The translations under genes and the position numbers were made by a program. The notes beneath the pieces were generated by a model. That model had not been told where the DNA came from. It saw only the letters and a list, made by a program, of their open reading frames with translations, and made no database searches. From Ktedonobacteria bacterium (GTDB lineage: Bacteria; Chloroflexota; Ktedonobacteria; Ktedonobacterales; JACDGC01), in the NCBI GenBank assembly GCA_027459785.1, contig DAIDGU010000056.1, positions 40,230-104,229 of the forward strand: a stretch of 64,000 bases of DNA, read 5' to 3'. Of this stretch, positions 3,454 through 58,098 are shown piece by piece (the stretch's first letter is position 1; each line of letters opens with the position of its first letter).

Positions 3454-3526
3454 GAATAGTACCATGAGGACATGTGTTTTACCCGCGCAGGAGGACGACT
3501 GACCACAGTGCCGAGAAGTACCCTCC

Positions 3527-3582
3527 AGTCCGCGTCGGCGGACTTTGTGGCGTAGCCCCTAGGCGCGGTTTTAACCGCCCGC
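3527..3582. repeat. Dispersed repeat family C copy (AGTCCGCG.CGGACTT...CTAGGCGCGGTTTTAACCGCCCG)
   Basis: Matches copies at 10231-10340, 19869-19927, 45805-45982 and 55172-55222. Confidence 0.7.
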
Positions 3583-3640
3583 TCGCCCATCAACGTGTCG
3601 TGTGAATCGTTCGCTATTTGCCTATTCAAGAGGTGCCAGC

Positions 3641-7536: not shown

Positions 7537-8238
7537 ATGAAGTTCGGCATTCTCGTTTTCCCTGGCACGTGGAGCGACCGCGACTGGCACCATGTGTTGA
7601 CGCGCACGCTAGGGCAGACGGCGGAATATATTTGGCACGACGACACGGACCTGCACGGCTGCGACGCGCTGATCGTCCCCGGCGGCTTCGCTCACGGCGA
7701 TTATTTGCGCGTGGGTGCCATCGCGCGCTTTTCGCCGATCATGGCGGCGGTTGCGCGCTTCGCTGAGGCGGGTGGCTTGATCCTGGGCAGTTGCAATGGC
7801 TTCCAGATCCTGACGGAGGCGGGGTTGCTGCCGGGCGCGCTGCTGCGCAACGCCAGCTTGGCCTTCCGCTGTGAATGGGTGCATGTGCGCGTGGAGCGCA
7901 CCGACACGCCTTTCACCAATGCCTGCGCGCCGGGCCAGGTCTTGCGCATCCCCATCTCGCACGGCGATGGCAATTTCTATATGGAGGATGCTGACCTGGC
8001 GGCGCTGGAAGCGCGCGGCGGCGTGGTCTTCCGCTATTGCGATGCGGCGGGCAATGTGACACCATCCGCCAACCCCAACGGCTCGCGCAACAACATCGCC
8101 GGCATCATCAACGCACGCGGCAATGTGCTGGCGTTGATGCCGCACCCCGAACGCTGCTGCGAGGCGGAACTCGGCGGCACGGATGGCCGTTTCATCTGCG
8201 ACTCCCTGCTGGCGGCGCACGCGCCCGCCGCGCGGTGA
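7537..8238 (+). CDS. purQ: Phosphoribosylformylglycinamidine synthase subunit PurQ (glutaminase)
   Basis: 233 aa; [19 protein letters not shown] and MPHPER motifs. Confidence 0.9.
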
Positions 8239-9534: not shown

Positions 9535-10176
9535 GTGCGTTACGCGATAGAGAAAATGACCCTGGCGGATTTGCCGCGCATCACTGAGATCGAGAAGCTC
9601 GCCTACCCGACCTCGCAATGGCCGACCAGCGCCTATCGACGCGAATTGCAGGAAAACACCTGGGCGCACTATATCGTCGTGCGCGACACGACCATCGCCG
9701 CGCGCTACCAACAACAGGCGCAGGTGAACGAATTACCGCGCCGGGGCTTTCCTTTCGGTTTCCGCCAGCCGTCCCCCGTTGCCAGCGAAGCGCACCTGCG
9801 TTCCATCGTCGGCTATGCCGGCCTGTGGCTGATGGTGGATGAAGCGCACGTCACGACCATCGCCACCCATCCCGCCGTGCGGCGGCGCGGCCTGGGCGAA
9901 TTGCTGCTTGTCGCGCTCATCGACATCGGCTATGAGATCGGCGCGCGCTGGATGACGTTGGAGGTGCGCGTGAGCAACGAGCCGGCCAAGGCGCTCTATC
10001 ACAAATACGGCTTCAAGATCGTCAGCACCCGCCCGCGCTATTACAGCGACAACAACGAGGACGCCTATATCATGTGGACCGACGAGATCACCCTGCCGGA
10101 CTATCGCCAGATGTTCGCCGACCACAAAGCCCAACTCCTCGCCCGCCTGGCACAAGACGCCCCCGTCCCCGGCTAG
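9535..10176 (+). CDS. rimI: Ribosomal-protein-alanine N-acetyltransferase (GNAT)
   Basis: GNAT motifs (TIATHPAVRRRGLGELLL, YHKYGF); synteny tsaE-tsaB-rimI. Confidence 0.8.
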   Translation: MRYAIEKMTLADLPRITEIEKLAYPTSQWPTSAYRRELQENTWAHYIVVRDTTIAARYQQQAQVNELPRRGFPFGFRQPSPVASEAHLRSIVGYAGLWLMVDEAHVTTIATHPAVRRRGLGELLLVALIDIGYEIGARWMTLEVRVSNEPAKALYHKYGFKIVSTRPRYYSDNNEDAYIMWTDEITLPDYRQMFADHKAQLLARLAQDAPVPG

Positions 10177-10230
10177 CGCACGGCCCCACCCCCGGCCCCT
10201 CCCCATCTGCGGATGGAGAGGGGAGATCGC

Positions 10231-10340
10231 CAGTCCGCGCAGGCGGACTTCGTGGCCCACGGCCCTTAGGCGCGGTTTCAACCGCCCGCCGTCCCTGCCC
10301 CCGTCCCTGGCACATCATCAACCGCCCGCCGTCCCTGGGG
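10231..10340. repeat. Repeat family C copy followed by the tandem aaccgcccgccgtccctg unit
   Basis: cagtccgcgcaggcggacttcgtggcccacggcccttaggcgcggtttcaaccgcccg. Confidence 0.7.
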
Positions 10341-10442
10341 TGGGATCATCCCCTGGTCAAGCGCGCCAGAACTTGCTACAATACATCGGACGAGCCATTC
10401 GCGCACTCAAGCACATTCTGAACGAAGGATACCATTGACCCT

Positions 10443-11960
10443 ATGTTGCGTTTGCATCATGCCAGCTTATTCGCGCTGCTCACGCTGTTCCTTGGTGGCT
10501 GCGCCCTCAGCGGCACCAGCAGCAGTACGGCGACCACATCAGCCCCGCCCGCCCTGTATACCTTGCCTGGTGGTGGCGCGTGCGTGCAATTGGGCCGCGC
10601 GCCTCAGCCACCCTTTGCGAACGTGCAGGTGAGCCATGATAGCGCATTGGCACACAGCGAGCCAGAGCTGGCCGAAAACCCACATAATCCCTTGAATCTC
10701 GTCGGCGGCTCGAAGTTTTTTACCAACATCCAGCACTATGAGTTTCAGATCGGCACCTATGCCTCGTTCGATGGCGGCTGCACCTGGACGGATGGCGGTG
10801 TTTTGCCCGGTTTCAGCAGTCAGGAAATCACGTCGGATATCTCCTTCGGTTACGGCTCTCAGAATACCGTCTACGCCTCCGTGCTGGATACCGATAACAG
10901 GAATCAGAGCGGCCTGACCGTTTCGACCTCCACCGATGGCGGTAAGACGTTCGGCAATCCTGTGGCGGCGTATAACGACACGACCGGCGCGGTCTTCAGC
11001 GACAAACCGTGGATCGCCGTGGATGACACCGCCAGTCCCTATAGCGGCTCCGTGTACGTCGTCTGGTCGTATGATTACAATACCTATCGTGGCCACTCCT
11101 GTAACTCCAATACGATTGGCTGCCCGCAGGAAGTCGGCTTCGTGAAATCGACCGATGGCGGCAAGACCTTCGCGCCGGTGAAGCTCATCGAGGGCAGCGC
11201 CCCCTTCTGCACTAATCCCACGCTGGATCGCCCCAAAAGCTCCCATCAGTGCGACGCCGCGCTGGGCGCGACCCCCGTGGTGCTGCCCGACGGCACCATC
11301 GCCGTGATGTATGCCTACATCGACCTCAGCAATCTAGAGAATATCGCCACGCGCATCCTCGTCGTCACCTCGGCGAACGGCGGTGCCACCTGGTCCGCGC
11401 CCGTGCGCGTCGCCACGGTGCATGATATCCCAGACGATTTCCCCGGCGAGAATTTCCGCACGGCCCCGCTACCCGCCTTCGCCGCCGATCCGCAGACCGG
11501 CCAATTGTATGTGGCGTGGTCCGACGAGCAACACAACGAGTCCGACATCTTGCTGGCGACTTCAACGAACAAGGGCCACACATGGTCCGCGCCCATCAAG
11601 GTGAATGACGACCCCACCGGTACCGGCGCGCAGCACTTCCAGCAGCAACTCGCCGTCGCGCCAAACGGCGTGGTCAGCGTCACCTACTTCTCCACGCAAG
11701 TCGATCCGCAGCATAAGCTGATCGACACCTTCCTGGCGCAATCGACCGATCACGGCGTGACGTTTCAGCCGGCAATGCGCGTCACCACGCAATCCTGGGA
11801 TCCGCGTGTCGATGAACCAACCGATCCCAATAATCAGGGCTTCATCGGCGATTATCAAGGGTTAGCCGCCGACAATCAATTCGTCCATCCTTTCTGGAAC
11901 GACACGCGCACCGGCAAGCAAGATATCTTCACGGCAGCCATCCCCAGCGCGCAACCGTAA
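10443..11960 (+). CDS. Lipoprotein with BNR/Asp-box repeats (sialidase-like beta-propeller glycosidase family)
   Basis: Signal peptide with lipobox LGGCAL; five Asp-box motifs (STDGGKTF x2, SANGGATW, STNKGHTW, STDHGVTF). Confidence 0.75.
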   Translation: MLRLHHASLFALLTLFLGGCALSGTSSSTATTSAPPALYTLPGGGACVQLGRAPQPPFANVQVSHDSALAHSEPELAENPHNPLNLVGGSKFFTNIQHYEFQIGTYASFDGGCTWTDGGVLPGFSSQEITSDISFGYGSQNTVYASVLDTDNRNQSGLTVSTSTDGGKTFGNPVAAYNDTTGAVFSDKPWIAVDDTASPYSGSVYVVWSYDYNTYRGHSCNSNTIGCPQEVGFVKSTDGGKTFAPVKLIEGSAPFCTNPTLDRPKSSHQCDAALGATPVVLPDGTIAVMYAYIDLSNLENIATRILVVTSANGGATWSAPVRVATVHDIPDDFPGENFRTAPLPAFAADPQTGQLYVAWSDEQHNESDILLATSTNKGHTWSAPIKVNDDPTGTGAQHFQQQLAVAPNGVVSVTYFSTQVDPQHKLIDTFLAQSTDHGVTFQPAMRVTTQSWDPRVDEPTDPNNQGFIGDYQGLAADNQFVHPFWNDTRTGKQDIFTAAIPSAQP

Positions 11961-12544: not shown

Positions 12545-12660
12545 AAGACCAGGGGAAAACAAGGAGTTTATACCCATTTCGGGATAAGACGGTGGTCAGC
12601 GGGGCCGGACAGACAGGAATGTCTGTCCTCCGGATGGTAGAGTGATGACTCGGATTAGGT
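12545..12660. repeat. Repeat family A copy
   Basis: caggggaaaac...tttcgggataagacggtggtcagcggggccggacagacaggaatgtctgtcctccggatggtagagtgatgac. Confidence 0.7.
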
Positions 12661-13963: not shown

Positions 13964-13995
13964 CTCTGGTCATCATGAGCAATGTTAAAGAACAG

Positions 13996-14104
13996 TGAAC
14001 GGAACGCGAAATGACACGAAATTGCCGCGAGATGACACGAAATAATTCCCTCCAACATTTCGCGTTATCTCGCGCCCGATCTCGTGTCATCTCGCGTTCC
14101 GTTC
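13996..14104. repeat. Repeat family B palindrome (CGCGAAA/CACGAAA units)
   Basis: gaacggaacgcgaaatgacacgaaattgccgcgagatgacacgaaa ... tttcgcgttatctcgcgcccgatctcgtgtcatctcgcgttccgttc. Confidence 0.7.
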
Positions 14105-14126
14105 ATCTTTTTCTCTTTTCTCGCTG

Positions 14127-18804: not shown

Positions 18805-20466
18805 TTATGTCATCTTTTCCGGCTGGACTTCGCGCGCCCGTCGCAGGATCTGCCCGCCCGCCGCGAGCGCGACGATGGCGACGGCGAGCAGCCCACCGGT
18901 GCGCAGCAGCGCGATCAGCGGGCCGACGTGGGGGTCGCTTTGGCCCGGCAGCGGCACGAAGCGCGTGGGATAGATGATCTCTTGCACGCGCGGGAGGCAG
19001 AAGAGCGTCAGCGCCAGCCACAGCGCCCAGGCGGAGGGCGTGCGCGCCAGCCCGCGCTGCCAGGCCAGGTACGCCAGCGCGACCAGCGCCGGCACGATCA
19101 AGCAAAAATGAATATCCTCCGCCAGCGGGCTGAGCAGCACGATCAGCGGCAGCGCCAGCAGTTGCGTCCCCAGCGTCAACGCCGGATCAGCTTTTTCTCG
19201 CGCAGGTGAGGGTGCTGACAATCGCTTCACGAAAGCCGTATAGGCGCGAAGCACAGACATGCCCACCGCATTTCCCTCAATAACCCTTCGTACTCCTGCT
19301 TTCTCTGCGTGATCTTCGTGGCTCGTCCTCACCTCGCCCAAGCTGGCAGGGGTCGCGCGCAGCCACAGCGCCACTGCACCCACCAGCGCGCCAAGCCGCA
19401 GCGGCAGCACCAACCACGGTGCCACGACCAGCGGGCGCGTATAGTGGTTGACGGTAAACATGCGCAGCAGCATCCCATACGGCGACTGATTGATATATTC
19501 CGCATCGGCATGGAAAGCGTTCCATTGGGTAAAGAAGACGATATAGTCATGCAGCGCCCCCAGGCCGACGGGGACGAACGCGAGCGCCACCAGCGCCACC
19601 GCCGCCAGCCCGCCGCGCACCGCCGTGCGCCAATCTCCCTGCCACAGCCACACCAGCAACACCAGCGCCAGGGGCGGCTTCACCGCGATGGCCAGCGCCA
19701 GCACCAGCGCCGCCGGCCAGCCGTGTCCCCGTTGCCACAGGCTGCACGCCCCCACCGCCAGCGCCGCCATTAGCAGATCCGCCTGCCCCAGCCACAGATC
19801 ATACGTCACCACCGCCGGCAACAAACACGCCGCCGCAAATGCCAGCGCCGCCGCCCACCGCTCGATCCCAGTCCGCGACGGCGGACTTCGTGGCGGCACG
19901 CCCTTAGGCGCGGTTTCAACCGCCCGCATCCCCGTTGCTCCGACATGCGCCCGCCGTCCCTTCGCGTCGCCCACCACTCCCGTTGCTCCGGCATCCGCCC
20001 GCGTTTTCCCGCCCTCCGGCAGCAGGTTCCGTTGCAGTTCCCAGCCCATCCACACGACGGCAGCGACATTCAGCGCGGTCCACAGCAGCCAGATGGCGCG
20101 GGCCGGCAGCCCCAGCACCACCGGCACGGCCAGCACCAACGCCAGCAGCGGCGGATAAACATAGCCGTGCGCCTGAATGCCAGCGGCGTTTGTGCCGTTG
20201 CCCTGGCTGATCAGATCATGATAGGGATTATGGCCGGTGGCGACCGCCCGCGCCCCCGCCAGGTACGCGGCGAAGTCCGTCCCCGCGTGCGCTCCCGGAC
20301 CGGCGGCGTGCAACCAGATCGCCGCGCCGAGGGCGACGGCCAGCGCGATCACGCCGAGCGCCGGCAGATGCGTGCGCCATCCCCGCCAGTTTTCGCCTAG
20401 CAGCGCTGTTATCGCCTGCTCGTCGCGCATCGCTCGCTCCTGCTGCTGTTCACCGTACCGTGGCAT
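18805..20466 (-). CDS. Polytopic membrane protein, glycosyltransferase family 87/DUF2029-like, carrying an in-frame repeat-derived insert
   Basis: More than 10 TM helices, GT87-like topology; residues ~170-215 (AVETAPKGVPPRSPPSRTG) are encoded by a family C repeat copy. Confidence 0.55.
   Translation of the reverse strand: MPRYGEQQQERAMRDEQAITALLGENWRGWRTHLPALGVIALAVALGAAIWLHAAGPGAHAGTDFAAYLAGARAVATGHNPYHDLISQGNGTNAAGIQAHGYVYPPLLALVLAVPVVLGLPARAIWLLWTALNVAAVVWMGWELQRNLLPEGGKTRADAGATGVVGDAKGRRAHVGATGMRAVETAPKGVPPRSPPSRTGIERWAAALAFAAACLLPAVVTYDLWLGQADLLMAALAVGACSLWQRGHGWPAALVLALAIAVKPPLALVLLVWLWQGDWRTAVRGGLAAVALVALAFVPVGLGALHDYIVFFTQWNAFHADAEYINQSPYGMLLRMFTVNHYTRPLVVAPWLVLPLRLGALVGAVALWLRATPASLGEVRTSHEDHAEKAGVRRVIEGNAVGMSVLRAYTAFVKRLSAPSPAREKADPALTLGTQLLALPLIVLLSPLAEDIHFCLIVPALVALAYLAWQRGLARTPSAWALWLALTLFCLPRVQEIIYPTRFVPLPGQSDPHVGPLIALLRTGGLLAVAIVALAAGGQILRRAREVQPEKMT
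19869..20020. repeat. Repeat family C copy plus degenerate tandem units, inside the 18805..20466 CDS
   Basis: cagtccgcgacggcggacttcgtggcggcacgcccttaggcgcggtttcaaccgcccg, then ccccgttgctccg.. units. Confidence 0.7.
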
Positions 20467-31954: not shown

Positions 31955-32109
31955 AAAGTGGTGGTAAAGGCTTGCCTTATCGGCTCTTCAGCTCAAACCG
32001 CCACCCCTGTTGCGCTGCGCTGAAATCCTGCCATGCAGCCCCAAAAGAAGGTGGCAGTTCCAAGCTGGGAGGTTTAGCTCCCAGCGGTCATTGCAGCAAC
32101 GGATTATGC

Positions 32110-32262
32110 CCCTTTCGGGTAAAGAGAGTGGCCATCAAGGCCGGACAGACAAGAATGTCTGTCCTCCGGGTGATAGCCCTGGGGCGCTGAAGGTCCAGAT
32201 CAATCAGGACAAGACAGACAGGAATGTCTATCCTCCGGATGATAGAGTGATGACCCGCATAG
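32110..32262. repeat. Repeat family A copy (two hairpin units)
   Basis: tttcgggtaaagagagtggccatcaaggccggacagacaagaatgtctgtcctccgg ... gacagacaggaatgtctatcctccggatgatagagtgatgacccgc. Confidence 0.7.
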
Positions 32263-39846: not shown

Positions 39847-39883
39847 TTATGCTACAATCTCCCCAGAAGAGAGAGTGGCAGGG

Positions 39884-39988
39884 AGGGACGGAACGCGAAA
39901 TAGCGCGAGATTGGCGCGAAATCACACGGCAACTTGCCAGTATTTCGCGTTTTCTCGCGCTCATTTCGTGGCATTTCGCGTTCCGTCC
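39884..39988. repeat. Repeat family B palindrome (CGCGAAA/CACGAAA units)
   Basis: ggacggaacgcgaaatagcgcgagattggcgcgaaatcacacg ... tatttcgcgttttctcgcgctcatttcgtggcatttcgcgttccgtcc. Confidence 0.7.
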
Positions 39989-40045
39989 TTTCTTCTTGTA
40001 AGTGCTCCCACCCTTTGTCATATATTCGCAAAGGAGCGTAGAGAG

Positions 40046-45804: not shown

Positions 45805-45982
45805 CGGGCGGTTGCAATCCCACGAGGAACGGCGGGGCGGAGGGGCGGGTAAGGACGGCGGGCGGTTGAAACCGCGCCTAAGGGCGTTCCGCCACAAAGT
45901 CCACCTACGTGGACTGGAGTTTAGTCCGCGCAGGCGGACTTCGTCGCCGTTAGGCGCTTAGGCGCGGTTTCAACCGCCCGCA
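45805..45982. repeat. Repeat family C: two copies in inverted orientation forming a ~170-bp palindrome
   Basis: cgggcggttgaaaccgcgcctaagggcg...ccacaaagtcc // agtccgcgcaggcggacttcgtcgccgttaggcgcttaggcgcggtttcaaccgcccg. Confidence 0.7.
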
Positions 45983-46002
45983 CCGTTCGCTGGCAGACCA
46001 CC

Positions 46003-46050
46003 CGGAGGACAGACATTCTTGTCTGTCACCTGGCGGACAGGGAAGTCGCC
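46003..46050. repeat. Repeat family A core hairpin, inverted orientation
   Basis: ggaggacagacattcttgtctgtcacc. Confidence 0.5.
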
Positions 46051-49497: not shown

Positions 49498-49519
49498 GAG
49501 ACTGATCCTTTCAACTGGC

Positions 49520-49600
49520 GGAAAAAGCGGTGGTCAGCGGGGCCGGACCGACAGGAATGACTGTCCGCCGAGGTGAGGGCGAATGGCTGTCCGCCGGTAC
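49520..49600. repeat. Repeat family A copy
   Basis: gcggtggtcagcggggccggaccgacaggaatgactgtccgccgaggtgagggcgaatggctgtccgcc. Confidence 0.6.
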
Positions 49601-54935: not shown

Positions 54936-55171
54936 TGATGTTTTACAAATCAGAAGGGATATGCAACGCCGGGTCGCCAGGAGGGTGCCAGCGGTCGCAC
55001 GGTCGATGGGAACGAGACCAAGTGGTCGCCGGCACGCCGGGAGAAAGACCAAGTGGTCGCGGGGGCCAGATCCCAGTGCCGCACGCCCGCCGGGGGTTCA
55101 ACCCCCCGGCTCGGAACAGGAACCCCTCCGGGCTAGAAGCGAGCGTGTCCAGGATACATGGTAAAGGGGCA

Positions 55172-55222
55172 TAAACCGCGCCTAAGCGCCTAACGGTACG
55201 AGGTCCGCTGGCGCGGACTGCA
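55172..55222. repeat. Repeat family C copy (inverted orientation) in the accD-accA spacer
   Basis: aaaccgcgcctaagcgcctaacggtacgaggtccgctggcgcggact. Confidence 0.55.
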
Positions 55223-55256
55223 AATTGATGCGGACTGGAAAACGTGGGAGAGATGT

Positions 55257-56809: not shown

Positions 56810-58098
56810 TGCGATGGGGTCGGCGTCGTTTTGGGGGCGGGCGAGGGCGTGGTCGCCGGGCTGGCCGTCAGGGACGGGGCCGGCGTGCCGCTGCCACTGA
56901 CCGATGTTCCTGCCAGCGCCACGGGGCGGTTCGTCATGTAGCCCAGGCCCGCGCCGATGAGCCAGGCCAGCACGACCAGGCCGAAGATGGTCAACTGCAC
57001 CTTGCCCGCGCCGCTCTTGGCTTCCGCAGCGGGCGGCGCAGCAGCTTCCGCCGCGCCCGGCAGATCGGGGCGCAGGGCCGGACGGCGGCCAGTGAGCATA
57101 TTGACCATGCGCTCGCCCATGCTGGCCCCAAACGCCTCGTCTTCCCAGGGCGGGGGTCGCCGGCGACGGGGGCGCGGCTCGTCGTCGTCATAGCGTCGGC
57201 CTCGCGCGCCGCGCGGCGGCTCGTCATACTCGTCGCGCCGGCGGGGTGGTGGCCCCAGGCGCGACTCCTCGAACTCATCACGGCGCGACCGCGAACCACC
57301 ACGCGGATCATCATACTCGTCACGGCGCGACCGCGAACCACCACGCGGATCATCATACTCGTCGCGGCGGGACCGCGAGCCGCCACGCGGATCATCATAC
57401 TCGTCGTGCTGGCGAGGTGGTGGTGCCAGGCGCGACTCCTCGAACTCATCACGGCGCGACCGCGAGCCGCCACGGGGATCATCATAGTCGTCGCGCCGAC
57501 GAGGCGTGCCGCCCCGCGAACCCTCCGCATCATCACGGCGGGACCGCGAGCCGCCGCGCACATCATCATCGCGCCGCCGTGGGGGCGGTGGCCCCATCTG
57601 CGACTCCTCGAACTCGTCGCGGATGGCAGGTGCGGGGCGCGATTCCTCGATTTCCGCGCGGCGTGGACGGCTGGGCGGTGCGCTGCGGTCATCATCGCGG
57701 CGACGGGGCGGTGGCGCGCCCATGCGCGATTCTTCGAATTCGTCACGGGGCGCGCGGTCGCGGGAGCCACCACGGGCATCCGCTGGGGCATCGCGGCGCG
57801 CGCGGCTGGGCGGCGCACCACGCGCATCTTCGTCGCGGCGCGACCGTGAACCACCACGCGGATCATCGGTGTCGTCGCGCCGCCGTGGGGGCGGTGGCCC
57901 CATCTGCGACTCCTCGAATTCGTCGCGGCGACTGCTTGAACTGCGCGGCGGCTCGTCGTGGTCATCGCGCCGTGGACGGCTGGGCGGCCCACGGCGGTCG
58001 TCATCCGCGCCACCCGGACGATTGCCGCCACGGGAACCTGAGCGCGAACTTTGCTCGCGGCGTGGTGGGAGATCTTCATCCCAATTGCCGTTACCCAT
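56806..58098 (-). CDS. Low-complexity tandem-repeat protein (Arg/Asp/Glu/Ser-rich, about 8 units of RRDEYDDPRGGSRSRRDEFEESR.GPPPPRR) with a C-terminal TM helix and a Thr/Pro tail
   Basis: 430 aa; the DNA shows ~75-bp tandem repeats across 57180-57900; TM helix VQLTIFGLVVLAWLIGAGLGYM. Confidence 0.55.
   Translation of the reverse strand: MGNGNWDEDLPPRREQSSRSGSRGGNRPGGADDDRRGPPSRPRRDDHDEPPRSSSSRRDEFEESQMGPPPPRRRDDTDDPRGGSRSRRDEDARGAPPSRARRDAPADARGGSRDRAPRDEFEESRMGAPPPRRRDDDRSAPPSRPRRAEIEESRPAPAIRDEFEESQMGPPPPRRRDDDVRGGSRSRRDDAEGSRGGTPRRRDDYDDPRGGSRSRRDEFEESRLAPPPRQHDEYDDPRGGSRSRRDEYDDPRGGSRSRRDEYDDPRGGSRSRRDEFEESRLGPPPRRRDEYDEPPRGARGRRYDDDEPRPRRRRPPPWEDEAFGASMGERMVNMLTGRRPALRPDLPGAAEAAAPPAAEAKSGAGKVQLTIFGLVVLAWLIGAGLGYMTNRPVALAGTSVSGSGTPAPSLTASPATTPSPAPKTTPTPSH

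Follow-up and report, generated by a model that had tools for sequence, protein, structure and literature searches.

In a 64,000-nt stretch of the genome of a Ktedonobacteria bacterium (Chloroflexota; Ktedonobacterales; assembly GCA_027459785.1, contig DAIDGU010000056.1, positions 40,230 to 104,229; hereafter the window), a gene encoding a membrane glycosyltransferase of family GT87 contains a copy of a short dispersed hairpin repeat, designated family C, that is read in frame as part of the predicted protein. The best explanation overall, to which a probability of about 0.8 is assigned, is a repeat insertion that was tolerated in a loop of this enzyme. A short non-coding dispersed repeat resembling repetitive extragenic palindromic (REP) sequences, with a 60-nt core of three hairpins and a G+C-rich tail, would have entered the gene within the stretch encoding the short cytoplasmic loop between transmembrane (TM) helices 2 and 3, in an ancestor that this bacterium shares with its closest known relatives. 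The gene would have stayed open, four of the six core frames being free of stop codons and the inserted length being a multiple of three, and the repeat would now be translated as an extra stretch of about 50 residues, rich in Arg, Pro and Gly and probably disordered, on the cytoplasmic face and far from the periplasmic active site. The enzyme would have stayed functional, with the insert carried along as tolerated passenger DNA and not serving as a new functional module; its length would later have been altered by in-frame duplication or deletion, and a second, unrelated insert of 123 nt would have been gained by the same gene in the TM8-TM9 loop. Since roughly 1/3 x 2/3, or about 2/9, of random insertions would keep the frame and selection would remove the others, no special mechanism would be needed.

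The core of the repeat in the GT87 gene was located at 19868..19927 on the plus strand, antisense to the gene, by repeat, pattern-count, alignment and pairing evidence. It consists of three small hairpins, all given here for the plus strand: hairpin 1 at 19870-19887 (AGTCCGC-GACG-GCGGACT), hairpin 2 at 19892-19902 (GGCG-GCA-CGCC), and hairpin 3, which is held within the conserved 20-mer TAGGCGCGGTTTCAACCGCC at 19905-19924. The core is followed by a G+C-rich tail at 19928..20022 (+; end approximate), in which a 24-nt direct repeat (19931-19954 and 19979-20002, 92% identical) recurs with a spacing of 48 nt; Tandem Repeats Finder reported no tandem array in the insert. The motif CGCCCGCCGTCCCT is also present in the tails of other family C copies. 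Thus, the span 19869-20020 assigned to the repeat in a first-pass annotation of this DNA held for the insert as a whole, but the conserved repeat core takes up only 19868-19927 of it and the tail reaches about 20022.

The 20-mer TAGGCGCGGTTTYAACCGCC occurs five times in the window, against 0.01 expected, and the 60-nt cores are 88% to 90% identical, that at 19868-19927 sharing 88% identity with 10230-10289 and 90% with 45858-45917 (inverted); a repeat search tied the same core also to 3525, 45921 and 55173. A covariance model built from 21 Chloroflexota copies found six family C copies in the window and nothing else convincing. Besides the intragenic copy (19863-19928, plus strand, 85.5 bits), these were a copy at 3520..3583 (+), a copy at 10225..10345 (+) consisting of the core 10230-10289 and a tail (model match 10225-10290) and lying between ORFs 9535-10176 and 10443-11960, an inverted head-to-head doublet at 45857..45982 (45857-45922 on the minus and 45916-45982 on the plus strand), and a diverged copy at 55162..55226 (-; 25 bits, E 2.6e-4). 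As judged from the context of open reading frames (ORFs) and from G+C content at third codon positions (GC3), five of the six are intergenic, the copy in the GT87 gene being the sole intragenic one.

The resulting in-frame insert, designated INS1, occupies 19867..20022 on the minus strand and encodes LPEGGKTRADAGATGVVGDAKGRRAHVGATGMRAVETAPKGVPPRSPPSRTG, residues 149-200 when the uninterrupted ORF of 553 codons is numbered. This ORF contains GMRAVETAPKGVPPRSPPSRTGIERW, and antisense reading of the repeat by the gene yields MRAVETAPKGVPPRSPPSRTG. When the intergenic copy at 10230 is translated in the corresponding frame, RRAVETAPKGRGPRSPPARTG is obtained, which bears out the earlier proposal that one peptide arises from both copies. 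Within the core, stop codons are confined to one frame per strand. Single copies had internal hairpins only and no terminal inverted repeats, such as those that define miniature inverted-repeat transposable elements, and no target-site duplication was visible at the INS1 junctions, where the boundaries are blurred by the tail.

The uninterrupted ORF spans 18805..20466 on the minus strand when extended to the ATG at 20466. The coding sequence, however, is likely to be 18805..20430 (541 aa), starting with the ATG at 20430 (M13), because this start agrees with those of P0001, an identical NCBI protein of 541 aa that begins at M13, and of the closest ortholog (locus L001), and because AGGAG is present a few bases upstream. 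The coordinates 18805..20466 of the first-pass annotation therefore describe an intact ORF whose likely start lies further downstream. The predicted protein scored 63.3 bits with Pfam GT87 (PF09594), whose gathering cut-off is 25 (E 3.7e-17), in line with the GT87-like assignment made earlier. Its 99 database homologs were almost all GT87 proteins of Ktedonobacterales (Chloroflexota), mostly of 440-490 aa, and the GC3 of the gene, 0.80, was coding-like.

An AlphaFold2 model based on a 79-sequence alignment had a pLDDT of 85.9 and a pTM of 0.87, being weak only at two inserts and above pLDDT 90 in the remainder. Its helices follow the order found in PimE, a mycobacterial polyprenyl-phosphate-mannose-dependent mannosyltransferase of the same Pfam family with the same 12-TM GT-C fold, and PimE cryo-EM structures (9dm7 and 9dm5) were the top Foldseek matches, with target-normalised TM-scores of 0.76-0.78. 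PimE has 12 TM helices with both termini cytoplasmic, juxtamembrane elements JM1 and JM2 in the first periplasmic loop (PL1), a second periplasmic loop (PL2) between TM7 and TM8, and cytoplasmic TM2-3, TM4-5 and TM8-9 loops (PMC12041525). Residues D58, Y62, Y92, D160, Q163, K195 and H321/322 of PimE were shown by experiment to be essential or important (PMC12041525); they fall in family-invariant columns, and all are present here, as D64, Y68, Y104, D223, Q228, K263 and H453. A family profile aligned with PimE at E 2.7e-5, with D64 and Y68 opposite the catalytic D58 and Y62. The YPP helix of the model corresponds to JM2 of PimE, and the D160/Y161/Q163 motif, which reads YDLWLGQAD in the window protein, follows TM3 and lines the periplasmic cavity, which sets the orientation of TM3. 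The active-site residues, including the catalytic Asp at the JM1 tip, are thus conserved between the two proteins, although they share only 16-18% identity. Whereas the TM2-3 and TM8-9 cytoplasmic loops of PimE are short, each has about 50 extra residues in the window protein.

In the family alignment, the TM2-TM3 loop is 11 aa in 59 of the 79 orthologs and 61 aa in the window protein, INS1 adding about 50 residues. This comparison, which had been proposed as a check on the first-pass annotation, establishes the segment as an insertion relative to the orthologs, and the position predicted for it between TM segments is now specified as between TM2 and TM3, on the cytoplasmic side according to homology with PimE. 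The net positive charge of INS1 (10 K/R versus 5 D/E) is consistent with that side. In the model, INS1 (about 137-187 in the 541-aa numbering) is coil with pLDDT 45-62.

The closest relative, P0002 (locus L001), is 81% identical to the window protein, has a TM2-TM3 loop of 44 aa that contains RAVETAPKSLRLQSPPERTG, and is represented by the same allele in three JGI metagenome assemblies (P0002, P0110 and P0111). Alignment of the L001 DNA showed a family C repeat at the same site and in the same orientation and frame as in the window gene, the tail in the window being 51 nt longer. Because both genes carry the insert, all divergence between them postdates the insertion. The ratio of nonsynonymous to synonymous divergence (dN/dS) between the two was 0.29 over the gene as a whole and 0.26 when the insert was left out (dS 0.45), while it was 0.65 within the shared part of the insert, which comprises only about 40 codons. 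These values show that the gene outside the insert has been under purifying selection since the two lineages split, and suggest that it is functional. A pseudogene, or two genes merged through a chance open frame in G+C-rich DNA, both of which had been raised earlier as alternatives, is most improbable. High-GC DNA does yield many long spurious ORFs, and selection after the second insert, which is private to the window genome, is not measurable. However, orthologs of 440-490 aa align as one protein across both inserts and continue on both sides of INS1, which argues against a merger, whereas the dN/dS of 0.26 outside the insert and the retention of all family-invariant residues, the catalytic ones included, argue against a pseudogene; the GC3 and the confident fold model point the same way.

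A third relative, P0003 (about 64% identical), has a TM2-TM3 loop of 64 aa. The start of its loop DNA matches hairpin 3 at 19 of 21 positions in the same frame (RRAVEPTPE...), and its end is a decayed family C copy in the opposite orientation, the two forming a degenerate inverted doublet whose alignment scores were equalled by 4 and 0 of 500 shuffles. The insertion is thus old, since the closest relative shares repeat, site and frame with the window gene and the third relative has a decayed doublet; this sharing by relatives had escaped the first-pass annotation. The simplest reading is a single ancestral insertion followed by in-frame length changes and by decay in one lineage. Alternatively, the window and L001 lineages could each have gained a different family C variant at one hot spot, their hairpin 2 variants being different (GGCG..CGCC versus AGCC..GGCT) and both occurring elsewhere in the family, and the loops of other orthologs taking inserts repeatedly. 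Independent insertions of this kind are quite unlikely, however, because site, orientation and reading frame are identical in the two genes, both have the upstream partial copy GCGGGCGG(A/T)TGC, their flanks are homologous (IERW versus VEQW), and the third lineage has a remnant in the same frame, so that a single event in an ancestor is the more parsimonious account. Ktedonobacterales-type GT87 orthologs and/or family C repeats were also carried by metagenome-assembled genomes (MAGs) labelled as Proteobacteria, namely GCA_021323815.1 (Centralia_MAG_675; loci L002 and L064) and Centralia_MAG_377 (loci L008, L043, L065 and L092); the label of both is probably wrong.

Which level of the insert is kept, peptide or nucleic acid, was considered by comparing the window and L001 copies. 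Their cores differ at 8 of 61 positions, three in the loop of hairpin 1, one in a spacer and four in hairpin 2. The latter four constitute two compensatory pairs (G-C to A-T and G-C to C-G), and no stem is broken. Over this preserved hairpin, five consecutive residues of the peptide change radically, from GVPPR in the window to SLRLQ in L001. The hairpins of the nucleic acid, rather than the peptide, are conserved between these copies.

The first-pass annotation had regarded the repeat as apparently exapted as a loop segment. Exaptation in the sense of a gained function would mean that the peptide now works as a cytoplasmic loop, perhaps in docking or regulation, and is kept for that. In favour of this, the insert is in frame in at least two, and probably three, diverged lineages, and its net positive charge suits a cytoplasmic loop. 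A gained protein function is nevertheless not supported, and we regard it as very unlikely, considering the higher dN/dS inside the insert than outside, the 51-nt difference in length between window and L001, the radical replacement over the preserved hairpin, the decay of the element in P0003, the prediction of the segment as low-confidence coil, and the sufficiency of an 11-aa loop in most orthologs.

Maintenance at the level of nucleic acid, with the intragenic copy still a live member of its family, would be compatible with tolerance in the protein, and we consider it possible, though on balance doubtful. The hairpins could be selected as a recognition site for mobilisation or maintenance, or as a structure affecting mRNA stability or translation; alternatively, the copy could be overwritten repeatedly by gene conversion from other copies. 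The intact stems and the compensatory pairs favour such maintenance, as do the lack of synonymous change in the 13 codons over the conserved parts, the closer similarity of the window copy to its paralogs (92-96%) than to its positional ortholog (87%), and the pairing of hairpin 2, which was not used for selecting sequences, at 91% in 21 Chloroflexota copies. On the other hand, these comparisons involve a single ortholog pair and small numbers, the P0003 copy has decayed, the family is without known function and without an Rfam family, and the statistics of hairpins 1 and 3 are biased by the choice of sequences. Selection on structure and replacement or conversion of the copy would each account for this single ortholog pair.

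Some of these observations, together with others, weigh against a simple tolerated insertion. The 13 codons covering the stems and the 20-mer are all unchanged between the positional orthologs, for which P is roughly 0.015 by our own estimate (about 10 synonymous sites, with a proportion of synonymous differences of 0.34). The insert is thus not evolving as purely neutral DNA, and either selection on structure or copy replacement keeps the element intact. The assignment of the loop depends on homology with PimE at 16-18% identity rather than on a direct topology predictor, and the low pLDDT of the inserts is partly trivial, as the alignment has gaps there. We infer from sequence that an active protein is produced and that its insert is neutral, as well as the way in which the repeat moves. 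Moreover, the second insert may be an artefact of assembly, or it may be very recent and possibly harmful.

This second insert, designated INS2 and absent from the first-pass annotation, is in frame, 123 nt (41 codons) long and located at about 19220..19342 on the minus strand, where it encodes roughly LGEVRTSHEDHAEKAGVRRVIEGNAVGMSVLRAYTAFVKR. It was seen in one assembly only and is absent from L001. By homology with PimE it would lie on the cytoplasmic side in the TM8-TM9 loop, whose length is 62 aa in this protein versus 14 aa in 60 of the 79 orthologs. It has 55% G+C, where the gene has 68%, and the region around it (about 360-415 in the 541-aa numbering) has a pLDDT of about 58-81; no significant fold was found for it. 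As for its source, blastn and nhmmer searches of the window and the 110 fetched loci gave nothing significant, and neither of two scans of the metagenome collection for exact 23-mers found a match. Self-complementarity of INS2 and its likeness to a palindromic family in the window (13985 and 39880; see below) were no better than those of shuffles. One candidate was a cyanobacterial coding-like stretch, L100:5807-5833 (Elainellaceae), that matches 19247-19273, in the middle of INS2, at 24 of 27 nt, 20 of them exact and consecutive; the match was judged coincidental. A 9-bp inverted repeat, GAGGTGAGG...CCTCACCT, around INS2 was rejected as the termini of an element, its right arm being ancestral flank for which L001 has CTCTCATCTG.

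Unrelated inserts are present in the same loops of other orthologs. P0005 has them in or beside both loops, and the TM8-9 loops of P0026 and P0063 contain inserts that bring them to 76 aa and 70 aa, respectively. The P0026 insert contains a CCTCTCCATC..GATGGAGAGGGG hairpin, a 92% identical copy of which lies just downstream of the P0026 gene; at this locus the hairpin motif CCCCTC(C/T)CCATC...GATGGAGAGGGG is found at L109:7229-7447 and 7827-7862. Since several orthologs carry unrelated inserts in these two places, the TM2-3 and TM8-9 cytoplasmic loops behave as permissive landing sites in this family. The same hairpin motif occurs in the window at 10190-10229, immediately upstream of the family C copy at 10230.

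Outside the window, the exact 20-mer was found at no fewer than 103 loci in a scan of one genome per species, so that at least 103 such loci exist elsewhere. Hosts among the listed matches were Ktedonobacterales, Anaerolineae, Chloroflexia, Armatimonadota (Capsulimonas, Chthonomonadales) and many filamentous cyanobacteria (Microcoleus, Lyngbya, Tychonema, Leptolyngbya). A perfect hairpin of at least 6 bp precedes the 20-mer in 80 of 110 fetched copies. Its stems vary and covary (AGTCCGC, AACCCGC, AACCTGC, AGTCGGC, AGACCGC and others), its loops are mostly GNAG-type tetraloops (GGAG, GCAG, GAAG, GTAG), and its distance from the 20-mer is 9 nt in cyanobacteria versus about 17 nt in Chloroflexota, where hairpin 2 fills the gap. 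In the 21 Chloroflexota copies the hairpins are 97.7% paired with covariation, a value to be read with the use of hairpins 1 and 3 for selecting the sequences; hairpin 2 by itself shows CG:7/GC:7/UA:1 at one pair.

Family C resembles REPs in consisting of short G+C-rich palindromes in many copies, with inverted doublets. The window copies have CTTAGG or CCTAGG (TTAG/CTAG) before the conserved hairpin and so lack the GTAG of tagged REPs, while G precedes TAGG in 59 of the 110 fetched copies (about 54%), mostly those of cyanobacteria and Anaerolineae. In the window and the 110 loci (about 0.95 Mb), a crude scan for the HUH...Y-x-x-NP motif revealed no REP-associated tyrosine transposase (RAYT) near the copies, and no tblastn match below E 0.5 was obtained with an Escherichia coli RAYT query. 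Rfam models gave nothing at the gathering threshold except a tRNA. At permissive settings, only sub-threshold long-hairpin miRNA models and CRISPR-DR28 (32.6 bits versus 35, on hairpin 1) were matched, the doublet at 45857-45982 yielding the long-hairpin kind alone; these matches were read as generic hairpin resemblance and not as the identity of the family. A literature search for the repeat sequences returned no relevant paper.

In a further reading, the intragenic copy would be no dead passenger, its three hairpins being actively maintained through selection on DNA or RNA structure or through templated replacement of the copy, and family C would be an undescribed composite hairpin element. 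Such an element would consist of a variable, covarying hairpin followed by the near-invariant 20-mer and would be common to Chloroflexota, Cyanobacteria and Armatimonadota; with no GTAG tag in this genome and no RAYT found nearby, it would point to a new mechanism of mobilisation or maintenance that spreads horizontally between phyla. Taken jointly, these propositions are unlikely.

Translation of family C in other proteins was searched for with a HMMER profile of the frame-b repeat peptide against 1.84 billion representatives, which gave 10 matches at E <= 0.001 and no other bona fide long protein, in a search that has poor sensitivity for a 20-aa motif and whose cluster representatives may lack the insert. 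Nine of the matches were short (44-186 aa) and probably represent spurious ORFs; the tenth was an unrelated repetitive protein. A word-indexed protein search with joined peptides of the four open frames returned three candidates, none of which scored. Two of the fetched loci have family C copies within long frames. In a Ktedonobacterales MAG (CAZFWN010000159.1), L099:3298-5721 (+) is one stop-free frame of 808 codons, in which a GHMP-kinase part (ThrB-like, aa 88-310) and a PALP enzyme part (ThrC-like, aa 496-783) are linked by a segment that two family C copies make up (aa about 355-395). The repeats may have mediated a gene fusion in frame, or the spacer may simply happen to be free of stop codons. 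In the Anaerolineae MAG PPR_0270, the last 70 or so codons of a beta-propeller (PD40) ORF at L055:5283-6707 (+) cross a family C copy, and the C-terminal tail of this protein may be repeat-encoded.

Other repeats were observed in the window. A second family, at 13985-14110 and 39880-39995, both intergenic, forms hairpins of about 110 nt that are nearly perfect and consist of units of the CGCGAAAT/CACGAAAT type, with a folding energy of about -68 kcal/mol and z-scores of -10 to -12. A third family, with units of about 73 nt that terminate in hairpin GGACAGACAGGAATGTCTGTCC, is found at 1640-1712, 12568-12640, 32104-32245, 49506-49578 and 45997-46027, one copy adjoining the family C doublet. The region 57170-58010 is a dense array of direct repeats, imperfect and recurring at intervals of about 42 and 87 nt, one strand of which probably codes for a protein segment that is repetitive and rich in Arg and Asp.

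That palindromic repeats can enter genes in frame is already well documented, and the window case is of that kind, with a dispersed family that has intergenic copies, a segment missing from most orthologs, a preserved frame and a position in a loop. The Rickettsia palindromic elements (RPEs) are inserted in frame in protein genes (Ogata et al. 2000, 2002, summarised in PMC10969869). Like family C, they are short, palindromic and dispersed, and they occur both between and within genes; the copies within genes keep the frame and add a peptide to a surface or loop region of an apparently functional host protein. They differ in phylum and sequence, in having a palindrome of about 150 bp as against the three-hairpin core of about 60 nt, and in being very often intragenic, whereas one of the six family C copies in the window is; moreover, the host in the window is a polytopic membrane enzyme with the insert in a cytoplasmic loop. 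Intragenic GTAG/CGTC-tagged REPs, known from several phyla, encode 20-30 extra residues that were argued to be neutral, being in linkers or loops (Di Nocera et al. 2013, PMC3733652). These REPs and family C are G+C-rich stem-loops (20-40 bp), located mostly downstream of or between genes, often as inverted dimers, with a minority inside genes; they are distinguished by the TTAG or CTAG of the window copies, by the composite of three hairpins instead of a single palindrome, and by the negative outcome of the RAYT search around the family C copies. The doublet at 45857-45982 and the decayed one in the P0003 ortholog are comparable to REPINs, inverted pairs of REPs that RAYT mobilises (Bertels and Rainey 2011, PMC3116915/PMC3337134), but most family C copies are singlets, no RAYT was detected near them, and any mobility of the family is putative.

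What is new here is the phylum, the repeat family, the membrane-protein host, in which the cytoplasmic loops of a GT-C enzyme give the insertion a clear rationale in structure, the presence of two inserts in one gene and the substitutions that preserve the hairpins. The GT87 gene provides a clean, datable example of repeat DNA absorbed by a polytopic membrane enzyme. Its practical uses are modest: it shows where the GT87/PimE fold is permissive, for instance to tags or fusions, and for annotators it is a caution that odd low-complexity loops in Chloroflexota proteins can derive from repeats. Of more interest are the conservation of the hairpins and the 20-mer module found across phyla. The finding extends to Chloroflexota the selfish DNA within genes that was described from Rickettsia.

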